NCBI RefSeq assembly: GCF_001677475.2 | Contig: NZ_CP015229.1 | DNA length: 64,000 nt | Reading direction: 5' to 3' (one strand) | DNA from: Escherichia coli | GTDB lineage: Bacteria > Pseudomonadota > Gammaproteobacteria > Enterobacterales > Enterobacteriaceae | Shown: positions 54,445 through 62,976 of the stretch, in pieces | Position numbering within the stretch: the stretch's first letter is position 1 | How the letters are laid out: each line of letters opens with the position of its first letter | Made by a program: the position numbers and the translations under genes | The notes under the pieces: generated by a model | Databases searched by the model: none | The model's input: the letters and a program-made list of their open reading frames with translations, nothing else | Told to the model about the DNA's origin: nothing

Positions 54445-54856
54445 CTTTTAAAAAAGGGCGGCAGAGCAGTCACGGAGTAAAACTGATACCGCCAAATGTC
54501 ACCAGAATATTGATAACAGAGGGCGTTGTAGCGGGGTTGTCACTTAAGCGTATGGTCAACCTGACAACCCGGTGTCCTCAACGGGGAAAGGCGTCCCTCC
54601 CACCCCCGCCATACTTACCGCCGCGCCATTTCGCGGGTCGCCACAACCGGAAGCGCACGGTCGAATTAAATTTAACGACACCGTGCAGTGAGACGAACTT
54701 CGCCGTGCGCTTTCGTGTTGTGTGCCTGCTTTTAACCACGTCAGGCGAGGTGGTTTCCGTCATTCCCCAACGACAGGAAATCTGTATAATCTGGGTATCC
54801 CCAACGATCCAAGGAAATCATATGACAGAGCAAAGAGCACAAGCAGGTGATGGTGT

Positions 54857-56241: not shown

Positions 56242-56718
56242 TTAAGTTCCTGTCTTGGTGATGTTCTGGCTTTTCCGTTTTGATTCTTGATTTTTCAGAT
56301 AGTTAGCTACCTTCATTTCCATTGCGGCAATGTAGGCGCGAACGTCATGATCAACCCAACTAGGCTCCGTAGCATTTCCAGATAAGAGGAAAGCCACAAT
56401 TGCTCTTTTTTCATCAGAGGCGGCTTGATAAAGGCTGTTTATGTCTAAAAGTTCACTTTTTGTATCTGAAGTGGATGGGGTTGGTATGGGGTATTCGTTA
56501 AGCCCCCAATGCTCTGGACCAACCACATCAGAAAAGAAACGCCATAGTTCTGGAAGTTTGTCTTTACTTATCGAACCTTTCTTAATCCAGTCATGGATTG
56601 ATGGTGGTTGGACTTTGAAATGACGTGCGATTTCCGCCTTTGATTTGACGGCTCCTGATGCAATTTTTTTGTTAATGGCCTGCTCTATCGCTCGGCCTAA
56701 GTCTTTACCACTAAGCAT
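56242..56718 (-). CDS. prophage repressor, RacR-like (HTH, no S24 peptidase domain)
   Basis: 158 aa with N-terminal HTH (KAEIARHFKVQPPSIHDWIKKG); divergent from Cro-like gene; same length and position as Rac RacR. Confidence 0.75.
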   Translation of the reverse strand: MLSGKDLGRAIEQAINKKIASGAVKSKAEIARHFKVQPPSIHDWIKKGSISKDKLPELWRFFSDVVGPEHWGLNEYPIPTPSTSDTKSELLDINSLYQAASDEKRAIVAFLLSGNATEPSWVDHDVRAYIAAMEMKVANYLKNQESKRKSQNITKTGT

Positions 56719-56771: not shown

Positions 56772-56792
56772 TTAGGCATAGCCTATTGACAA
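56772..56792. promoter_or_regulatory. operator-like site in divergent repressor/cro promoter region
   Basis: ttaggcatagcctattgacaa plus neighbouring ttaggca and attaggctaagcctaat near-palindromes between repressor and cro-like genes. Confidence 0.6.
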
Positions 56793-56842
56793 TCACATTA
56801 GGCTAAGCCTAATATTATTGTGTGTTTTTTGGAGTTCATTCG

Positions 56843-57166
56843 ATGAAAAAAGATAACTATTCATTCAAACGAGCTTGTGCTGTTGTCGGTGGGCAATCAG
56901 CAATGGCTAGGCTTTTAGGTGTATCTCCTCCAAGCGTAAATCAATGGATCAAAGGTGTACGTCAGTTGCCTGCTGAGAGATGTCCTGCGATTGAACGAGC
57001 AACAAAAGGTGGTGTCCTGTGTGAAGAACTTCGTCCTGATGTTGATTGGACATACTTACGACGCTCGTCATGTTATTCGCAGAATATGTCGATGAAGCAA
57101 CCAAATGACGAAAACGATCATACCCGAAGCATCAAGAGGCAAATGATTCATGAAAATCAAACATGA
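56843..57166 (+). CDS. Cro-like HTH regulator (YdaS family)
   Basis: 107 aa from ATG with GGAG SD; HTH ARLLGVSPPSVNQWIKGVRQLP; divergent from repressor. Confidence 0.75.
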   Translation: MKKDNYSFKRACAVVGGQSAMARLLGVSPPSVNQWIKGVRQLPAERCPAIERATKGGVLCEELRPDVDWTYLRRSSCYSQNMSMKQPNDENDHTRSIKRQMIHENQT

Positions 57167-57575
57167 GCATATCCGCATGGCGATGAATGCCTGGGCATAC
57201 CCTGATGGTGAGAAAGTTCCTGCAGCTGAAATAGCCCGGACTTATTTCGAACTGGGAATGACGTTCCCGGAACTGTACGACGACAGCCATCCGGAAGCCC
57301 TGGCCCGTAATACCCAGAAAATTTTCCGTTGGCTGGATAAAGACACCCCTGATGCTGTTGAAAAAATGCAGGCTCTGTTACCGGCGATCGAAAAGGCGAT
57401 GCCGCCTTTGCTGGTGGCCCGTATGCGCAGCCACAGTTCTGAGTATTACCGTGAGATTGTCGAACGGAGGGATCGGTTGGTGAAAGATGTCGACGATTTT
57501 GTTGCGTCAGCGGTTGTTTTGTATGACCAGATGAATCGCGGCGGCCCGGCAGGAAATGCCGTGGTGATGCACTAA
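57150..57575 (+). CDS. YdaT-like (CII-like) regulatory protein
   Basis: 141-aa ORF immediately after the Cro-like gene with overlapping start, as ydaS-ydaT in Rac. Confidence 0.65.
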   Translation: MKIKHEHIRMAMNAWAYPDGEKVPAAEIARTYFELGMTFPELYDDSHPEALARNTQKIFRWLDKDTPDAVEKMQALLPAIEKAMPPLLVARMRSHSSEYYREIVERRDRLVKDVDDFVASAVVLYDQMNRGGPAGNAVVMH

Positions 57576-57582
57576 CAGCACG

Positions 57583-58566
57583 GTGTTCGGGGGTTTTATG
57601 AGCAGCAAGCTTCATGGTCTTGTCTGGGAAGGATGCGCCTTCACCGGCATGATCTTATCCCGGGTGGCAGTGATGGCCCGTCTTGCAGACTACAGCAATG
57701 ACGAGGGCGTGTCATGGCCTGCTATTGAAACTATCCGGCGTCAGATCGGTGCAAGAAGTGAATCCACAGTGAAATCGGCTATTGCAGAACTGGCGAAAGA
57801 GGGCTGGCTGACGAAGGAAGAGCGTAAGGTCGGTGGGCGTAATGTAAGCAATATCTATCGGCTTAATGTGGAAAAACTCGAAGCAGCAGCTGCGGCGGCG
57901 CGTGAGTCATATAAACCGAAAAGAAAAATTAGCCCGGCAAAAAATGACCCGTTAACAGTTGACCCGTCAAATATTGACCCCTCAACGGTTGACCCGTCAA
58001 ATTTTGATGGATCAACTGTTGATAAAAAACTGCCGATTAGGGGGACGATGATTGACCCCGATCAGTCAGTATTAAAACCTGATCCGTCAGATGAAAGATC
58101 TTCTTGTCCTGACGTTTCACTGCCGGACAAAAAACAATCATCACCAGTTGAGCGATTTCTGGAGAAACACCCGGATGCGCATACCTGGAATGTGCAGAAG
58201 CGACAGTGGGGTACCCGTGAGGATGTCGCCTGTGCGCAGTGGATTTGGGGACGGGTTGTTGCGTTGTATGAACAGGCCGCCAGTGATGATGGTGAGGTAT
58301 CACGCCCCAGAGAACCTAACTGGACGACCTGGGCGAATGATGTGCGCATGATGCGTATGCTGGATGGACGTAGTCACCGGCAGATTTGTGAAATGTTTGG
58401 GCGTGTCCAGCGGGATTCGTTCTGGGTAAAAAACATCATGAGTCCGGCAAAACTCCGGGAAAAATGGGATGAGCTGGTTATTCGTCTGGGGCGTTCGCCT
58501 GTACAGCGTTGCGTGAATCACATTTCTGAACCGGATACCGAAATTCCGCCGGGGTTCAGGGGGTAA
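57583..58566 (+). CDS. phage replication initiation protein (O-like, winged-HTH N-terminus)
   Basis: About 322-327 aa (ATG at 57598 has GGGGG SD); N-terminal HTH region; internal iteron array encoding repetitive linker PLTVDPSNIDPSTVDPSNFDGSTVD. Confidence 0.75.
   Translation: MFGGFMSSKLHGLVWEGCAFTGMILSRVAVMARLADYSNDEGVSWPAIETIRRQIGARSESTVKSAIAELAKEGWLTKEERKVGGRNVSNIYRLNVEKLEAAAAAARESYKPKRKISPAKNDPLTVDPSNIDPSTVDPSNFDGSTVDKKLPIRGTMIDPDQSVLKPDPSDERSSCPDVSLPDKKQSSPVERFLEKHPDAHTWNVQKRQWGTREDVACAQWIWGRVVALYEQAASDDGEVSRPREPNWTTWANDVRMMRMLDGRSHRQICEMFGRVQRDSFWVKNIMSPAKLREKWDELVIRLGRSPVQRCVNHISEPDTEIPPGFRG
57945..58090. repeat. iteron array (putative prophage origin of replication) inside replication gene
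   Basis: Direct repeats tgacccgttaac, ttgacccgtcaa (x2), ttgacccctcaa, ttgaccccgatc, tgatccgtcaga at 14-16 bp spacing. Confidence 0.7.
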
Positions 58567-58608: not shown

Positions 58609-59010
58609 ATGGGGGCTATTTATACCGAAGAACAGCGGGAAAGGTTACAGCGTCACATCGTTGACCTTGTACGTAAAAACGGGCGTATGACAATGCCACA
58701 ACTGGCATCGGCAACATATGCTTCACATGATTCCATTCGCCGGTACCTGAAGATGCTGGTGAGCCAGGGCGAAGTGTATGTTGTCAGCGGAAAAGGGGTA
58801 TTCCTTTCAGAGAGAGTTTACCGTGAATGGCTGGCAAGTTCGGCAAAAAAATCAAGGGTTATCCGCAAACCAGCACAAAAACAGGGTAAGGCCGGAGTAC
58901 AACCCTACGACCGGCACCAGAACGTAATTTGCCGGGAATGTCGTAACAGCGAATCAATGCAGCGGGTACTGGCTTTTTACAGGGGTGGATTTCAGGAGCT
59001 CGTATCGTGA
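58609..59010 (+). CDS. hypothetical DNA-binding protein (winged-helix-like N-terminus)
   Basis: 133-aa ORF, translationally coupled to next ORF. Confidence 0.5.
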   Translation: MGAIYTEEQRERLQRHIVDLVRKNGRMTMPQLASATYASHDSIRRYLKMLVSQGEVYVVSGKGVFLSERVYREWLASSAKKSRVIRKPAQKQGKAGVQPYDRHQNVICRECRNSESMQRVLAFYRGGFQELVS

Positions 59011-59315
59011 AAAAGTGGGTGCGTGCCGAGATACTGATTCTACGGCAGTGTGCGGGAACAATGACGGTGGAATGCATCGGGATGCTTATTGGTCGTAGTG
59101 AGGCTGCGGTCAGAACGAAAGCGCGGGAACTGGGTATTAGTATGATGTTACGGGGTGATTATCACCAGTCAGCAAAATATCCGCAGAGTGATATTGAGCT
59201 GGCGCGACAGCTGCATCAACGTGGCGTGTCCAGGAGAGAAATCGCCAGAAAATTTGGAATGCCGCTGCGCACAGTGAATAACTACGTTTATTTCGACAGG
59301 AGGGTGTCTGCGTGA
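59007..59315 (+). CDS. hypothetical protein with two HTH-like segments
   Basis: 102 aa; RSEAAVRTKARELGIS and VSRREIARKFGMPLRTV helix-turn-helix-like motifs. Confidence 0.5.
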   Translation: MKKWVRAEILILRQCAGTMTVECIGMLIGRSEAAVRTKARELGISMMLRGDYHQSAKYPQSDIELARQLHQRGVSRREIARKFGMPLRTVNNYVYFDRRVSA

Positions 59316-59557
59316 AAATCCTGTATCAGGATTACGGCCCGGTGGGACAGGTGGTTATCAGCAGTACTGTAATGGAGTTCCGGAAGCATAACCGTGTGGT
59401 GGATGCAGTGCTGTTAGCCTGTCCGGGGATATCGGCGAGCCGTGCAGGTGTGTTTTTTATGAAGACGAAGTTATATGGCAGTACAGCGTGGATAAAGAAG
59501 GCGTACCGGGTAGCGTTGCAGGAGGTAAACAGTGAGCGAATCGGCAACCATTCTTGA
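59312..59557 (+). CDS. hypothetical protein
   Basis: 81-aa ORF overlapping neighbours at both ends. Confidence 0.4.
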   Translation: MKILYQDYGPVGQVVISSTVMEFRKHNRVVDAVLLACPGISASRAGVFFMKTKLYGSTAWIKKAYRVALQEVNSERIGNHS

Positions 59558-60020
59558 TATGTCCTGTGGCAGTCGTATGTTCTGGTTCGATAAGAATGAC
59601 GACCGGGCGATATTTAGCGATATCAGAAAAGAAGAGCACACATTATGTGATGGACGACGCCTGATAATTAGCCCTGACCTGATAGCAGATTTTCGTGCAT
59701 TACCATTTGCAGACGCATCGTTTCCGGTTGTTGTATTCGACCCTCCGCATCTTGAGCGTGTTGGTGATAACGCCTGGATGGGAAAGAAATATGGACGGCT
59801 GAATAAAGATACCTGGCGTGATGATTTGCGGCAGGGATTTAAAGAAGCCTTTCGTGTGTTGTGGCCACACGGTGTTCTGATTTTTAAATGGAATGAAACG
59901 CAAATACCTGTCCGCCAGATATTGGCACTAACCGACGCGAAACCAATCATCAGCCAGCGCACCGGTAAGAACGATAAAACACATTGGATTATTTTTGTGA
60001 AGGAAGCGACCAGTGGGTAA
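59532..60020 (+). CDS. orphan DNA methyltransferase (amino-MTase, DPPH motif)
   Basis: 162 aa from GTG with GGAGG SD; motif I-like DMSCGSRMFW and motif IV VVVFDPPH; no adjacent restriction endonuclease gene. Confidence 0.7.
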   Translation: MSESATILDMSCGSRMFWFDKNDDRAIFSDIRKEEHTLCDGRRLIISPDLIADFRALPFADASFPVVVFDPPHLERVGDNAWMGKKYGRLNKDTWRDDLRQGFKEAFRVLWPHGVLIFKWNETQIPVRQILALTDAKPIISQRTGKNDKTHWIIFVKEATSG

Positions 60021-61528: not shown

Positions 61529-62362
61529 GTGACTGAATTAACCAAAGAGCAATTAATCGAAGAAGCCAAATTAAAAATAGCGATTGCGAAATGCTACCCC
61601 AGTTCAGGGATGGCACGGGTAGAGGGCGAGTTATTCAAAATTGCACTGGCATCGCTGGAAGCAGAACCAATAGGTGCTTTCCACATTGTAGAACAGCAAG
61701 TTGACGGAACAAGTTACTATATCAAGGATGGGGAATGGCCTATTGATACTGGGATTATTGAAGTCTACGCCGCCTCACCGATGACGGTAGTGCTGAACGA
61801 TGTATCTGGACCTCTTGCTCTTGCTTACAAAGAGCTTACACCTGCGATTATGCGCAACCATATCGCTGTATTCGAACGATACGGAATAACCCCAAACGAT
61901 AGCATTACTACAATTCATGCGCTTCGAATTGCGCTGGATGGCATAGAGCGGAGCGACGCCATGCTTCATGGACGTCAGCCATGCCATCAAATTACCGCCT
62001 CAATGGCAAAAGCTATTGCGCTTAAACTTGGTGCCGAACTGAATAACGAAGAAGCAGAGATTTTCGCGGATGGGTATAACACCGCCATGCTTCATGCCGA
62101 AAACTTTCGGGAAAATAAGAATTCGTCAACCAATAATTTTCGGATAACCTCGGAAACGTCAACCAACTCTCCGGCAATCCCTGATGAGGTGTTGTCCGCA
62201 ATCCTGAAGGTCGCCAGGCTTCGTGCAGATTTCGATGCTTCTGAAGGTGACAGGCGAGGTATCGGTGGTTGTCTGGATGAGGCCGAGCAAGAACTTATCG
62301 TTACCATTAACAAATACGCCAGTCAGATCGCAGTAGAAGCGATACAGGGGGCGCACCAATGA
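61529..62362 (+). CDS. hypothetical phage protein (277 aa), function unknown
   Basis: Largest ORF of nin-like array, GTG start after hairpin ggccgcccgaaagggcgg; no recognisable catalytic motif. Confidence 0.6.
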   Translation: MTELTKEQLIEEAKLKIAIAKCYPSSGMARVEGELFKIALASLEAEPIGAFHIVEQQVDGTSYYIKDGEWPIDTGIIEVYAASPMTVVLNDVSGPLALAYKELTPAIMRNHIAVFERYGITPNDSITTIHALRIALDGIERSDAMLHGRQPCHQITASMAKAIALKLGAELNNEEAEIFADGYNTAMLHAENFRENKNSSTNNFRITSETSTNSPAIPDEVLSAILKVARLRADFDASEGDRRGIGGCLDEAEQELIVTINKYASQIAVEAIQGAHQ

Positions 62363-62576: not shown

Positions 62577-62820
62577 ATTCATTCCGTATGGGAATTCCCA
62601 TATCGGGCAAAAACGGTTTGCTGTAAAGCGAGAGTTAAGTAGAATTGCTGCGGGTGCTTGAGGCTATCTGCCTCGGGCATGCCGCCGTAAGGCAGACAGA
62701 GAAAAGCCCCAGTTAACATTACGCGTCCTGCAAGACGCTTAACATTAATCTGAGGCCATATCTATGACTTGCACACGTAGGTTAGCCTCTTACGTGCCGA
62801 AAGGCAAGGAGAAGCAGGCT

Positions 62821-62976
62821 ATGAAGCAGCAAAAGGCGATGTTAATCGCCCTGATCGTCATCTGTTTAACCGTTATAGTGACGGCACTGGTAACGAGGAA
62901 AGACCTCTGCGAGGTACGAATCCGAACCGGCCAGACGGAGGTCGCTGTCTTCACAGCTTACGAACCTGAGGAGTAA
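62821..62976 (+). CDS. hok: Hok/Gef-family type I toxin (HokD/RelF-like)
   Basis: 51 aa MKQQKAMLIALIVICLTVIVTALVTRKDLCEVRIRTGQTEVAVFTAYEPEE; AAGGAG SD; in-frame upstream ATG at 62764 gives a 70-aa mok-like extension. Confidence 0.85.
   Translation: MKQQKAMLIALIVICLTVIVTALVTRKDLCEVRIRTGQTEVAVFTAYEPEE

Follow-up and report, generated by a model that had tools for sequence, protein, structure and literature searches.

A putative iteron-type origin inside a lambda O-related initiator gene, and the DnaT-like tail of its product, in a loader-less prophage replication module of Escherichia coli

The origin of replication of phage lambda (ori) is composed of four iterons of ca. 19 bp with a spacing of roughly two helical turns. 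Iteron replicons of plasmids (RepA/pi) use Rep proteins with tandem winged-helix domains, iterons of ca. 17 to 22 bp phased at about two helical turns, and DnaA boxes. Here, we describe a related arrangement in a stretch of 64,000 nucleotides of Escherichia coli (contig NZ_CP015229.1 of assembly GCF_001677475.2; hereafter, the window), whose right end, from ca. 49.9 kb, is a lambdoid prophage located beside potD/potC. The segment under study is the replication module of this prophage (Rac/SfII type), next to potC. Its replication initiator, a protein of 322 amino acids (aa) encoded at positions 57598 to 58566 (plus strand), combines a winged-helix N-terminal domain, a disordered linker, a C-terminal domain like that of lambda O, and a tail like that of the host protein DnaT (PHROG 391, Pfam HTH_36, and AlphaFold2). 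The gene contains a repeat array that we interpret as an iteron-type origin, in a module devoid of a helicase-loader gene.

Some of the closest described systems are propagating phages, namely SfII, vB_EcoS-569R4, 733R5, and HannyBb. In SfII, SfIV, SfV-type phages, and HannyBb, the components of the module are annotated as “O protein family,” “primosomal protein,” or “replication initiation O-like,” and our literature search found no mechanistic study of a SfII/SfIV/SfV/HannyBb-type module. Within the Eru typing of prophage replication regions, Eru4 corresponds to phage 75/02, with an “AAA helicase” after the initiator, and Eru8 and Eru11 are defined by YdaT plus an HTH_36 protein (Fagerlund et al. 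2022, PMC8951638). These last two types resemble the layout of the window, by description alone (PMC8951638), and the Eru typing papers make no mention of iterons, DnaT, or DnaC. In the Cellvibrionales, DopC consists of HTH_36 and a DnaT C-terminal motif, its partner being the P-like DopE (Brezellec et al. 2017, PMC5509034). Compared by description only, DopC has the same two elements as the initiator of the window, but it is chromosomal and has no iterons.

The open reading frame (ORF) of the initiator is intact, and its ATG at 57598 agrees with the start that RefSeq gives for a gene of 99.6% identity in E. coli 08-00022 (locus L001), where the neighbors are also alike and the product is merely called “helix-turn-helix domain-containing protein.” Close copies of the gene (≥80% of it covered) were found in 1,512 of 5,426 complete E. 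coli genomes. The protein matches the PHROG 391 profile, “replication initiation O-like,” from end to end (residues 1 to 322 on positions 1 to 298 of 298; E value, 2.5e-105), and in Pfam it gives HTH_36 and a weak DnaD_N match, with no Phage_rep_O. An AlphaFold2 model built with 23 family sequences showed an N-terminal winged helix (aa 1 to 105), a disordered linker (aa 109 to 179), a helical C-terminal domain (aa 183 to 297), and a disordered tail (aa 300 to 322). The first of these, encoded at 57598 to 57912 (plus strand) and predicted to bind DNA (predicted local distance difference test [pLDDT], 75 to 91), resembles dimeric winged-helix regulators of the MarR/PadR/AbfR type in Foldseek, several of which have been solved on DNA. 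When the full model was compared to the PDB, Foldseek found winged-helix regulators for this domain only and no match for the C-terminal domain. The latter (58144 to 58488, plus strand; pLDDT, 78 to 94) was connected by tblastn and BLASTP to the O proteins of lambda, 21, 434, and VT1-Sakai, with 43% identity over 93 aa to residues 188 to 270 of lambda O (E value, 2e-24), and BLASTP aligned this domain only. Judging from these alignments, its homology to the C-terminal domain of lambda O is genuine.

Inside this gene, we located six 12-bp sites that start at 57929, 57944, 57959, 57974, 57989, and 58004, i.e., with a spacing of exactly 15 bp, and match either TTGACCCGTCAA or its dyad variant TTGATGGATCAA with 0 to 3 mismatches. 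A degenerate seventh unit at 58019 (TTGATAAAAAAC) completes the array (57929 to 58030), and two further degenerate copies, out of phase, follow between 58052 and 58090 (TTGACCCCGATCAG at 58052 and CTGATCCGTCAG at 58079). A first-pass annotation had claimed at least six direct repeats within the initiator ORF, which holds, although the interval it gave (57945 to 58566) is one unit late at its left edge and extends to where the ORF ends. The repeats are no chance pattern: only three matches with ≤1 mismatch exist in the window, all of them within the array (0.3 expected over 64 kb), and the longest 15-bp-phased run was six, versus a maximum of two in 200 first-order Markov resamples. Tandem Repeats Finder reported a period of 15 with 5.1 copies, together with a 30-bp super-period.

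The array is made of alternating inverted half-sites, TTGAC and GTCAA, with the layout TTGAC cc GTCAA ata TTGAC cc CTCAA cgg TTGAC and so on, so that each 12-mer is a dyad. In the 10-bp core of the dyad (TTGAC-NN-GTCAA), positions 2 and 9, and likewise 3 and 8, were complementary in 94 to 98% of 464 units, a figure that is only indicative since the units were picked by their similarity to the consensus. The array codes for aa 111 to 145, i.e., it falls entirely within the linker that AlphaFold2 predicts as disordered. Across the family (75 distinct genes), the serine of [DE]xS tripeptides in the linker, picked by peptide pattern alone and not by DNA similarity, is encoded by TCA in 78 to 88% of cases, versus 14 to 17% elsewhere in the same genes. 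The array is, then, under constraint at the DNA level (synonymous sites). It also covaries with the initiator's N-terminal domain. Relatives with the same N-terminal domain, whether SfII, 569R4, and 733R5 (51 to 54% identity over full-length homologous initiators) or two loci linked to a lambda P gene (L011 and L012, 59 to 62%), keep an array with the 15-bp period and a core of the TGAC-NN-GTCA type, in the first three at the same place. By contrast, HannyBb, with the same C-terminal domain, tail, and DUF977 neighbor but an unrelated N-terminal domain, has at the same position five 23-bp repeats of unrelated sequence. Thus, the array behaves as an iteron array, to which the initiator would bind and from which replication would fire.

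The likeness to lambda extends to the dyad-symmetric direct repeats within the linker-coding part of the initiator gene, with an AT-richer but weakly marked stretch to their right, and to the operon order (repressor, cro, a gene in the cII position, initiator, and a gene in the ren position), besides the homologous C-terminal domain. The earlier proposal of a lambda-like origin within the initiator gene is well supported at this level, although the window has six to seven 12-bp sites spaced by 15 bp where lambda has fewer and longer iterons, its initiator has HTH_36 instead of Phage_rep_O as N-terminal domain, there is no P gene, and a DnaT-like tail takes the place of the lambda ending (...DLTNTDWIYG...). 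Compared with a RepA/pi replicon, there is one winged helix plus a lambda O-like C-terminal domain, the phasing is 15 bp, and there is a single DnaA box-like 9-mer that is not enriched. This 9-mer (TTTTCCACA, 57867 to 57875, minus strand, 55 bp left of the array) was discarded as a DnaA box, given that the motif occurs four times in the window with 5.9 expected by chance. Right of the array, a patch at 58000 to 58039 is a weak candidate for an unwinding element; its GC content in a 40-bp window, 0.30, is the minimum for the gene (between 57500 and 58700, such windows range from 0.30 to 0.68, mostly 0.45 to 0.60). We also observed that the alternation of inverted half-sites turns the whole array (57925 to 58035) into a single imperfect palindrome of ca. 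66 bp. For each strand, as single-stranded DNA (ssDNA), a long hairpin with imperfect pairing is predicted (-19.7 kcal/mol; z scores, -5.5 and -4.4), and the arrays of SfII, 733R5, and HannyBb likewise fold better than shuffled sequences (z scores, -2.9 to -4.5).

No helicase-loader gene is present downstream of the initiator or anywhere else in the window. The ten ORFs between 58609 and 62362 had no match to AAA+ (PF01695/PF00308), DnaC/IstB, lambda P (PF06992), or DnaB families in Pfam, NCBIfam, or PHROGs, and tblastn against the whole window, with four P proteins and four phage DnaC paralogs as queries, gave a best E value of 0.2. The first-pass annotation, which had noted that no P/DnaC-like loader follows, had suggested a hidden Markov model search of the small downstream proteins as a check. 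This search assigned the first of them to the DUF977/LygF winged-helix family (58609 to 59010, plus strand; Pfam DUF977, E value, 9e-26; PHROG 142, “Ren-like”; 43% identical to LygF of Rac, E value, 2e-34), the second to a small helix-turn-helix (HTH) protein (59034 to 59315, plus strand; Pfam HTH_23, PHROG 323, RefSeq “DNA-binding protein”), and the third, of 81 aa (59312 to 59557, plus strand), to PHROG 1001, of unknown function, without any Pfam or NCBIfam family. None belongs to an AAA+ or P-like family.

To place this arrangement among its relatives, we scanned IMG/VR with the family alignment, called the ORFs of the 80 loci recovered, and compared them with reference loaders. Among loci with initiators ≥80% identical to that of the window (80 to 97%), 32 carry a DnaC paralog and 16 do not, with the same tail in both. 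In the 32 loci, the DnaC paralog (PF01695 and PF00308; “DNA replication protein DnaC” in the source) begins 7 nt after the stop codon of the initiator, and usually a YdaW-like gene and LygF/DUF977 come next, in this order. The order in the 16 loader-less loci is initiator-DUF977 or initiator-YdaW-DUF977. The initiator-to-DUF977 junction, with a conserved spacer of ca. 40 nt, is common to the window, to several of the loader-less IMG/VR contigs, and to HannyBb, so that the loader-less form is a recurrent arrangement and not a private lesion. More distant members with the same type of tail (<80% identity and enough downstream sequence; n = 38) all lack a loader, except one that has a DnaC paralog. 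HannyBb (45 kb) and SfII (41 kb), searched as complete genomes, had neither DnaC- nor P-like sequences anywhere. One IMG/VR contig (L032), whose initiator is 96% identical, has at 4976 to 5700 a DnaC paralog broken into ORFs of 88 and 151 aa, which looks like a decaying loader gene beside an intact initiator.

The tail shared by these initiators is a disordered stretch of 20 residues, QRCVNHISEPDTEIPPGFRG, encoded together with the stop codon at 58504 to 58566 (plus strand; pLDDT, 38 to 44), and it is nearly identical to the C terminus of the host DnaT. By phmmer and NCBIfam, 15 of its 20 residues are identical to the last 20 of DnaT (alignment to DnaT 159 to 179), and in these searches the last ca. 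20 residues were the only likeness of the initiator to any NCBIfam equivalog or solved structure. The NCBIfam model of DnaT (NF002770) scored 16.3 bits, versus a curated cutoff of 201 bits, and covered only residues 303 to 322 on DnaT 160 to 179. The initiator has no similarity to the rest of DnaT (the N-terminal domain, the acidic linker, and the three-helix bundle), and there is none to dnaT at the DNA level. In DnaT itself, the C-terminal segment is a flexible tail that follows the three-helix bundle (PMC5778457). We considered whether the whole C-terminal domain of the initiator could be DnaT-like and ruled it out, as a profile of the domain against PDB sequences gave no DnaT chain and phmmer aligned the tail only. 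A recent capture of the tail from the host dnaT was also ruled out, since a DNA-level search of E. coli genomes had no match to dnaT. The 86 nt that code for the tail are common to prophage initiator genes of several annotations in 3,958 of 5,426 E. coli genomes (73%).

This tail is found on at least six unrelated initiator C-terminal domains, including those of the 75/02/Tritos/Evi, Gifsy-2/phi80-gp15, Rac YdaU, and SPN1S/PAT1 types. Rac (ydaU-ydaV-ydaW-lygF), Gifsy-1 and -2, and the Shiga toxin (Stx) phage 75/02 (“Eru4”) share with the window the same 20-residue tail, LygF/DUF977 downstream, and the immunity layout racR-ydaS-ydaT, but they have a DnaC paralog directly after the initiator and unrelated N- and C-terminal domains. 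The initiator of Eru4 is thus one of those whose tail ends in GFRG, and its “AAA helicase” is a DnaC paralog. The SfII/SfV/SfIV type differs from the window in the subtype of the tail, VDYSQIPAGFRG versus the DnaT-identical SEPDTEIPPGFRG, and in the next genes; SfII, 569R4, and 733R5 resemble it in having a GFRG-type tail and no loader gene. In the chromosome of the host, the dnaT-dnaC operon has the same order as the full modules of the phages, the protein with the tail and then the DnaC-type loader. We also noticed that the initiators of the Uetakevirus phages SPN1S (L010, 2748 to 3563) and PAT1 (L028, 1748 to 2563) have a near-copy of the entire DnaT C-terminal domain, bundle and tail (...PEPDSEIPPGFRG), and that no loader gene is annotated within ca. 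2.7 kb (SPN1S) and ca. 2.5 kb (PAT1) of downstream sequence.

Three kinds of tail exist within the family of the window initiator: the GFRG type, ...WNTxxGWxxVL, and ...LDFSNTNWIDGIEDDLVNAGVLP, the last of which resembles the end of lambda O. Counting distinct combinations of sequence and arrangement within this C-terminal-domain family, the GFRG tail was accompanied by a DnaC paralog in 14 and by no loader in 36, and never by lambda P, while all six combinations with a GWxxVL or lambda-like tail had lambda P (no DnaC paralog and none without loader). The association between tail type and loader type is strong (Fisher P of ca. 3e-8, uncorrected for shared ancestry). In the members with a GWxxVL or lambda-like tail, the P gene overlaps the stop codon of the initiator. 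The P-paired loci L011, L012, L014, and L015 end in ...WNTxxGW[ER][DN][VT]L or ...LDFSNTNWIDGIEDDLVNAGVLP. Such endings may be equivalents of the GFRG tail that dock P. Within this initiator family, therefore, the last ca. 20 residues predict the loader: a DnaC paralog or none for GFRG, P for the lambda-like endings. A wider census in IMG/VR, using a degenerate DNA pattern for PDxxIPxGFRG followed by a stop codon (first 120 stretches, spanning at least six C-terminal-domain families), gave at least 110 ORFs, in which the next gene was a DnaC paralog in at least 78 and there was no loader in at least 25, with P in none among the matches listed and seven too short to judge. Neither the DnaC paralogs of the close relatives, nor the likeness of the tail to that of DnaT, nor the fact that this tail is never paired with lambda P was within view of the first-pass annotation.

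With these elements, the following model can be proposed. The initiator would be transcribed from a pR-like promoter, and its N-terminal winged-helix domain, probably as a dimer, would bind the array of TTGAC/GTCAA half-sites inside its own gene, in the stretch coding for the linker. The resulting nucleoprotein complex would destabilize the adjoining AT-rich patch, and the lambda O-like C-terminal domain together with the DnaT-like tail (...SEPDTEIPPGFRG) would couple the origin complex to the DnaC-dependent loading of DnaB by the host. A loader encoded by the phage would thereby be dispensable, because origin and host DnaB/DnaC loading are already coupled, and the DnaC paralog of the relatives would serve as a phage-owned, optional copy of that type of loader. 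PriA/PriB target DnaT, whereas for the initiator the targeting would come from sequence-specific binding to DNA. On balance, we consider it probable, with moderate confidence, that this is a prophage origin with its array in the initiator gene and that host DnaB/DnaC are recruited through the DnaT-like tail. In this reading, the tail would be the contact to DnaB/DnaC. A broader version, in which the disordered tail R[CD]VNxxSxPDxxIPPGFRG acts as a portable peptide whose docking sets the helicase-loading route, always of the DnaC type and never lambda P, is more tentative, and we hold it as somewhat short of an even chance.

Several observations weigh against this model. The AT-rich patch, 40 bp at 30% GC, is weak, and weaker than the AT-rich region of lambda. 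Lambda and plasmid iteron origins space their sites more widely than 15 bp, and at this spacing dimers could not occupy all sites simultaneously. Most of the very close relatives have a DnaC paralog, and the copy in the window could be a deletion derivative. In the 2026 structure of the preprimosome, the C-terminal domain of DnaT is docked on PriA and its N-terminal domain is proposed as the likely recruiter of DnaB/DnaC, by a mechanism stated as unknown; the contact partner of the DnaT tail is not given there (PMC13377028). Also, DopC/DopE indicates that a DnaT-like C terminus is not universally exclusive of P. Finally, an AlphaFold2 model of a single-chain fusion, in which a cognate phage DnaC paralog (L031) was joined through (GGGGS)6 to the 24-residue tail, predicted no docking (tail pLDDT, 26 to 36), but this model was crude (monomer only, with a shallow alignment of 51 rows, no contact output, and no control) and was treated as uninformative rather than refuting. 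A full-text literature search for the string PPGFRG had no match.

The presence of DnaC paralogs in 32 of the 48 loci with initiators ≥80% identical, as part of a full module initiator-DnaC-YdaW-LygF, is what would be expected if the window held a defective remnant that has lost the DnaC-paralog gene (and ydaW) by deletion, the origin and initiator being relics that no longer drive replication. The prophage is, moreover, of the Rac/Qin kind (racR, dicB, DicF, and hok/sok), which is often cryptic. However, the initiator ORF, the array, and the tail are all intact, and the initiator-to-DUF977 junction with its spacer recurs in HannyBb, an isolated phage, as well as in 16 independent viral contigs. 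HannyBb lacks a loader in its whole genome, and phages of the SfII type propagate without one (PMC3772137), so we regard a defective remnant as unlikely. The tail might alternatively dock on the host PriA, the unwound dyad-rich array acting as a hairpin site for primosome assembly and DnaB being loaded via the restart primosome. The DnaT C-terminal domain does dock on PriA, through a hydrophobic surface that is conserved (PMC13377028), the hairpin described above can form on either strand of the array, and the SPN1S/PAT1-type initiators have the whole DnaT C-terminal domain. But the initiator of the window has only the last ca. 20 residues of DnaT, without the three-helix bundle, and the tail is not described as part of the PriA interface (PMC13377028). 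The hairpin potential is an automatic consequence of palindromic iterons, and the tight genomic linkage of the tail is to DnaC paralogs. This route through PriA seems to us as unlikely as the remnant.

The first-pass annotation had left two alternatives, direct use of host DnaC/DnaB or a loader hidden among the small downstream ORFs, and the comparison with relatives favors the former. DUF977 does come directly after the initiator in many loader-less loci, as a novel adaptor or loader replacing P/DnaC might, and the 102-aa HTH protein or the 81-aa protein could be cast in the same role. Nevertheless, full modules (Rac, 75/02, L036, and L074) also have DUF977/LygF, 3' of the DnaC paralog, and it is absent from the loader-less modules of the SfII, Klebsiella, and Pantoea types, where the next genes are unrelated (PerC, methylases, or a ParB-like protein), which argues that it is not a substitute loader. 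It has no ATPase motif, and PHROG groups it with Ren-like exclusion proteins, making an adaptor among these small proteins quite improbable. Hardly more can be said for a coding repeat generated by slippage, i.e., DPSxx pentapeptides forming a flexible linker, without origin function and with the real origin elsewhere. It would account for the 15-bp period, equal to five codons in frame, and for a copy number that varies from 2 to 10 among relatives, as slippage predicts. Selection on the peptide, however, does not explain the TCA synonymous-codon constraint or the dyad half-sites, and both the sequence and the period of the repeat switch with the DNA-binding domain, in a position that is the same as that of ori-lambda. 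The half-sites, the codon constraint, and the tracking of the DNA-binding domain lead us to favor an array of binding sites, and a mere coding repeat appears very improbable.

The other genes of the region are those of a lambdoid prophage of the Rac/Qin dicB-dicF kind, which contains an integrase, a large exonuclease gene, the DicF RNA, a racR-type repressor, YdaS/Cro-like and YdaT-family genes, the initiator, and hok/sok. The RacR-type repressor, in the CI position (56242 to 56718, minus strand; annotated as racR in the 99.6% identical locus L001), is divergent from the early-right operon. The latter would be transcribed from a putative pR-like sigma-70 promoter (56786 to 56815, plus strand; TTGACA-18-TAATAT, 10 of 12 matches to the consensus, the only evidence used) that leads into the cro/cII/initiator genes. 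These begin with a YdaS/Cro-like HTH gene (56843 to 57166, plus strand; start taken from RefSeq in L001; Pfam YdaS_toxin, E value, 4.6e-30; P22_Cro, E value, 1.2e-8), followed by a YdaT-family gene in the CII position (57150 to 57575, plus strand; Pfam YdaT_toxin, E value, 2.8e-10). Beyond the three small downstream genes lies a DNA methyltransferase (59532 to 60020, plus strand; PHROG 954, E value, 3.6e-86). Further on, a 277-aa ORF at 61529 to 62362, apparently two phage domains fused, matches only PHROGs of unknown function (phrog_14306, 6847, and 60) and no Pfam or NCBIfam family. The DicF antisense small RNA is in the early-left region (54456 to 54507, minus strand; Rfam RF00039, 77 bits). 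A type I toxin-antitoxin locus of the hok/sok type was found at 62652 to 62976, where the sok match (Rfam RF01794, 110.6 bits, at 62652 to 62826) overlaps the start of an ORF (62764 to 62976) whose product includes the Hok-like peptide MKQQKAMLIALIVICLTVIV...

The origin itself is a routine variant of the lambdoid replicon, common in E. coli prophages. What this analysis adds is the rule connecting tail and loader and the link to DnaT, a testable lead rather than a result. The family amounts to a natural experiment, in which a private DnaC paralog accompanies the same initiator in some loci and not in others, and sister initiators that differ mainly in their last ca. 20 residues use loaders of the lambda P type. 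Since this comparison singles out the short tail shared with DnaT, the tail is the likely specificity element for helicase loading. The rule has a bearing on the typing of replication regions in Stx and other prophages (Eru scheme) and suggests which prophages depend on the host DnaC. For the host, the comparison of phages provides a concrete and cheap hypothesis for how DnaT hands DnaB/DnaC to the restart fork. If the tail is indeed portable, then the C-terminal tail of DnaT, rather than or besides its N-terminal domain, would be what is missing in replication restart, the contact to DnaB/DnaC, and the dnaT-dnaC operon would resemble a domesticated phage cassette of initiator tail and loader.

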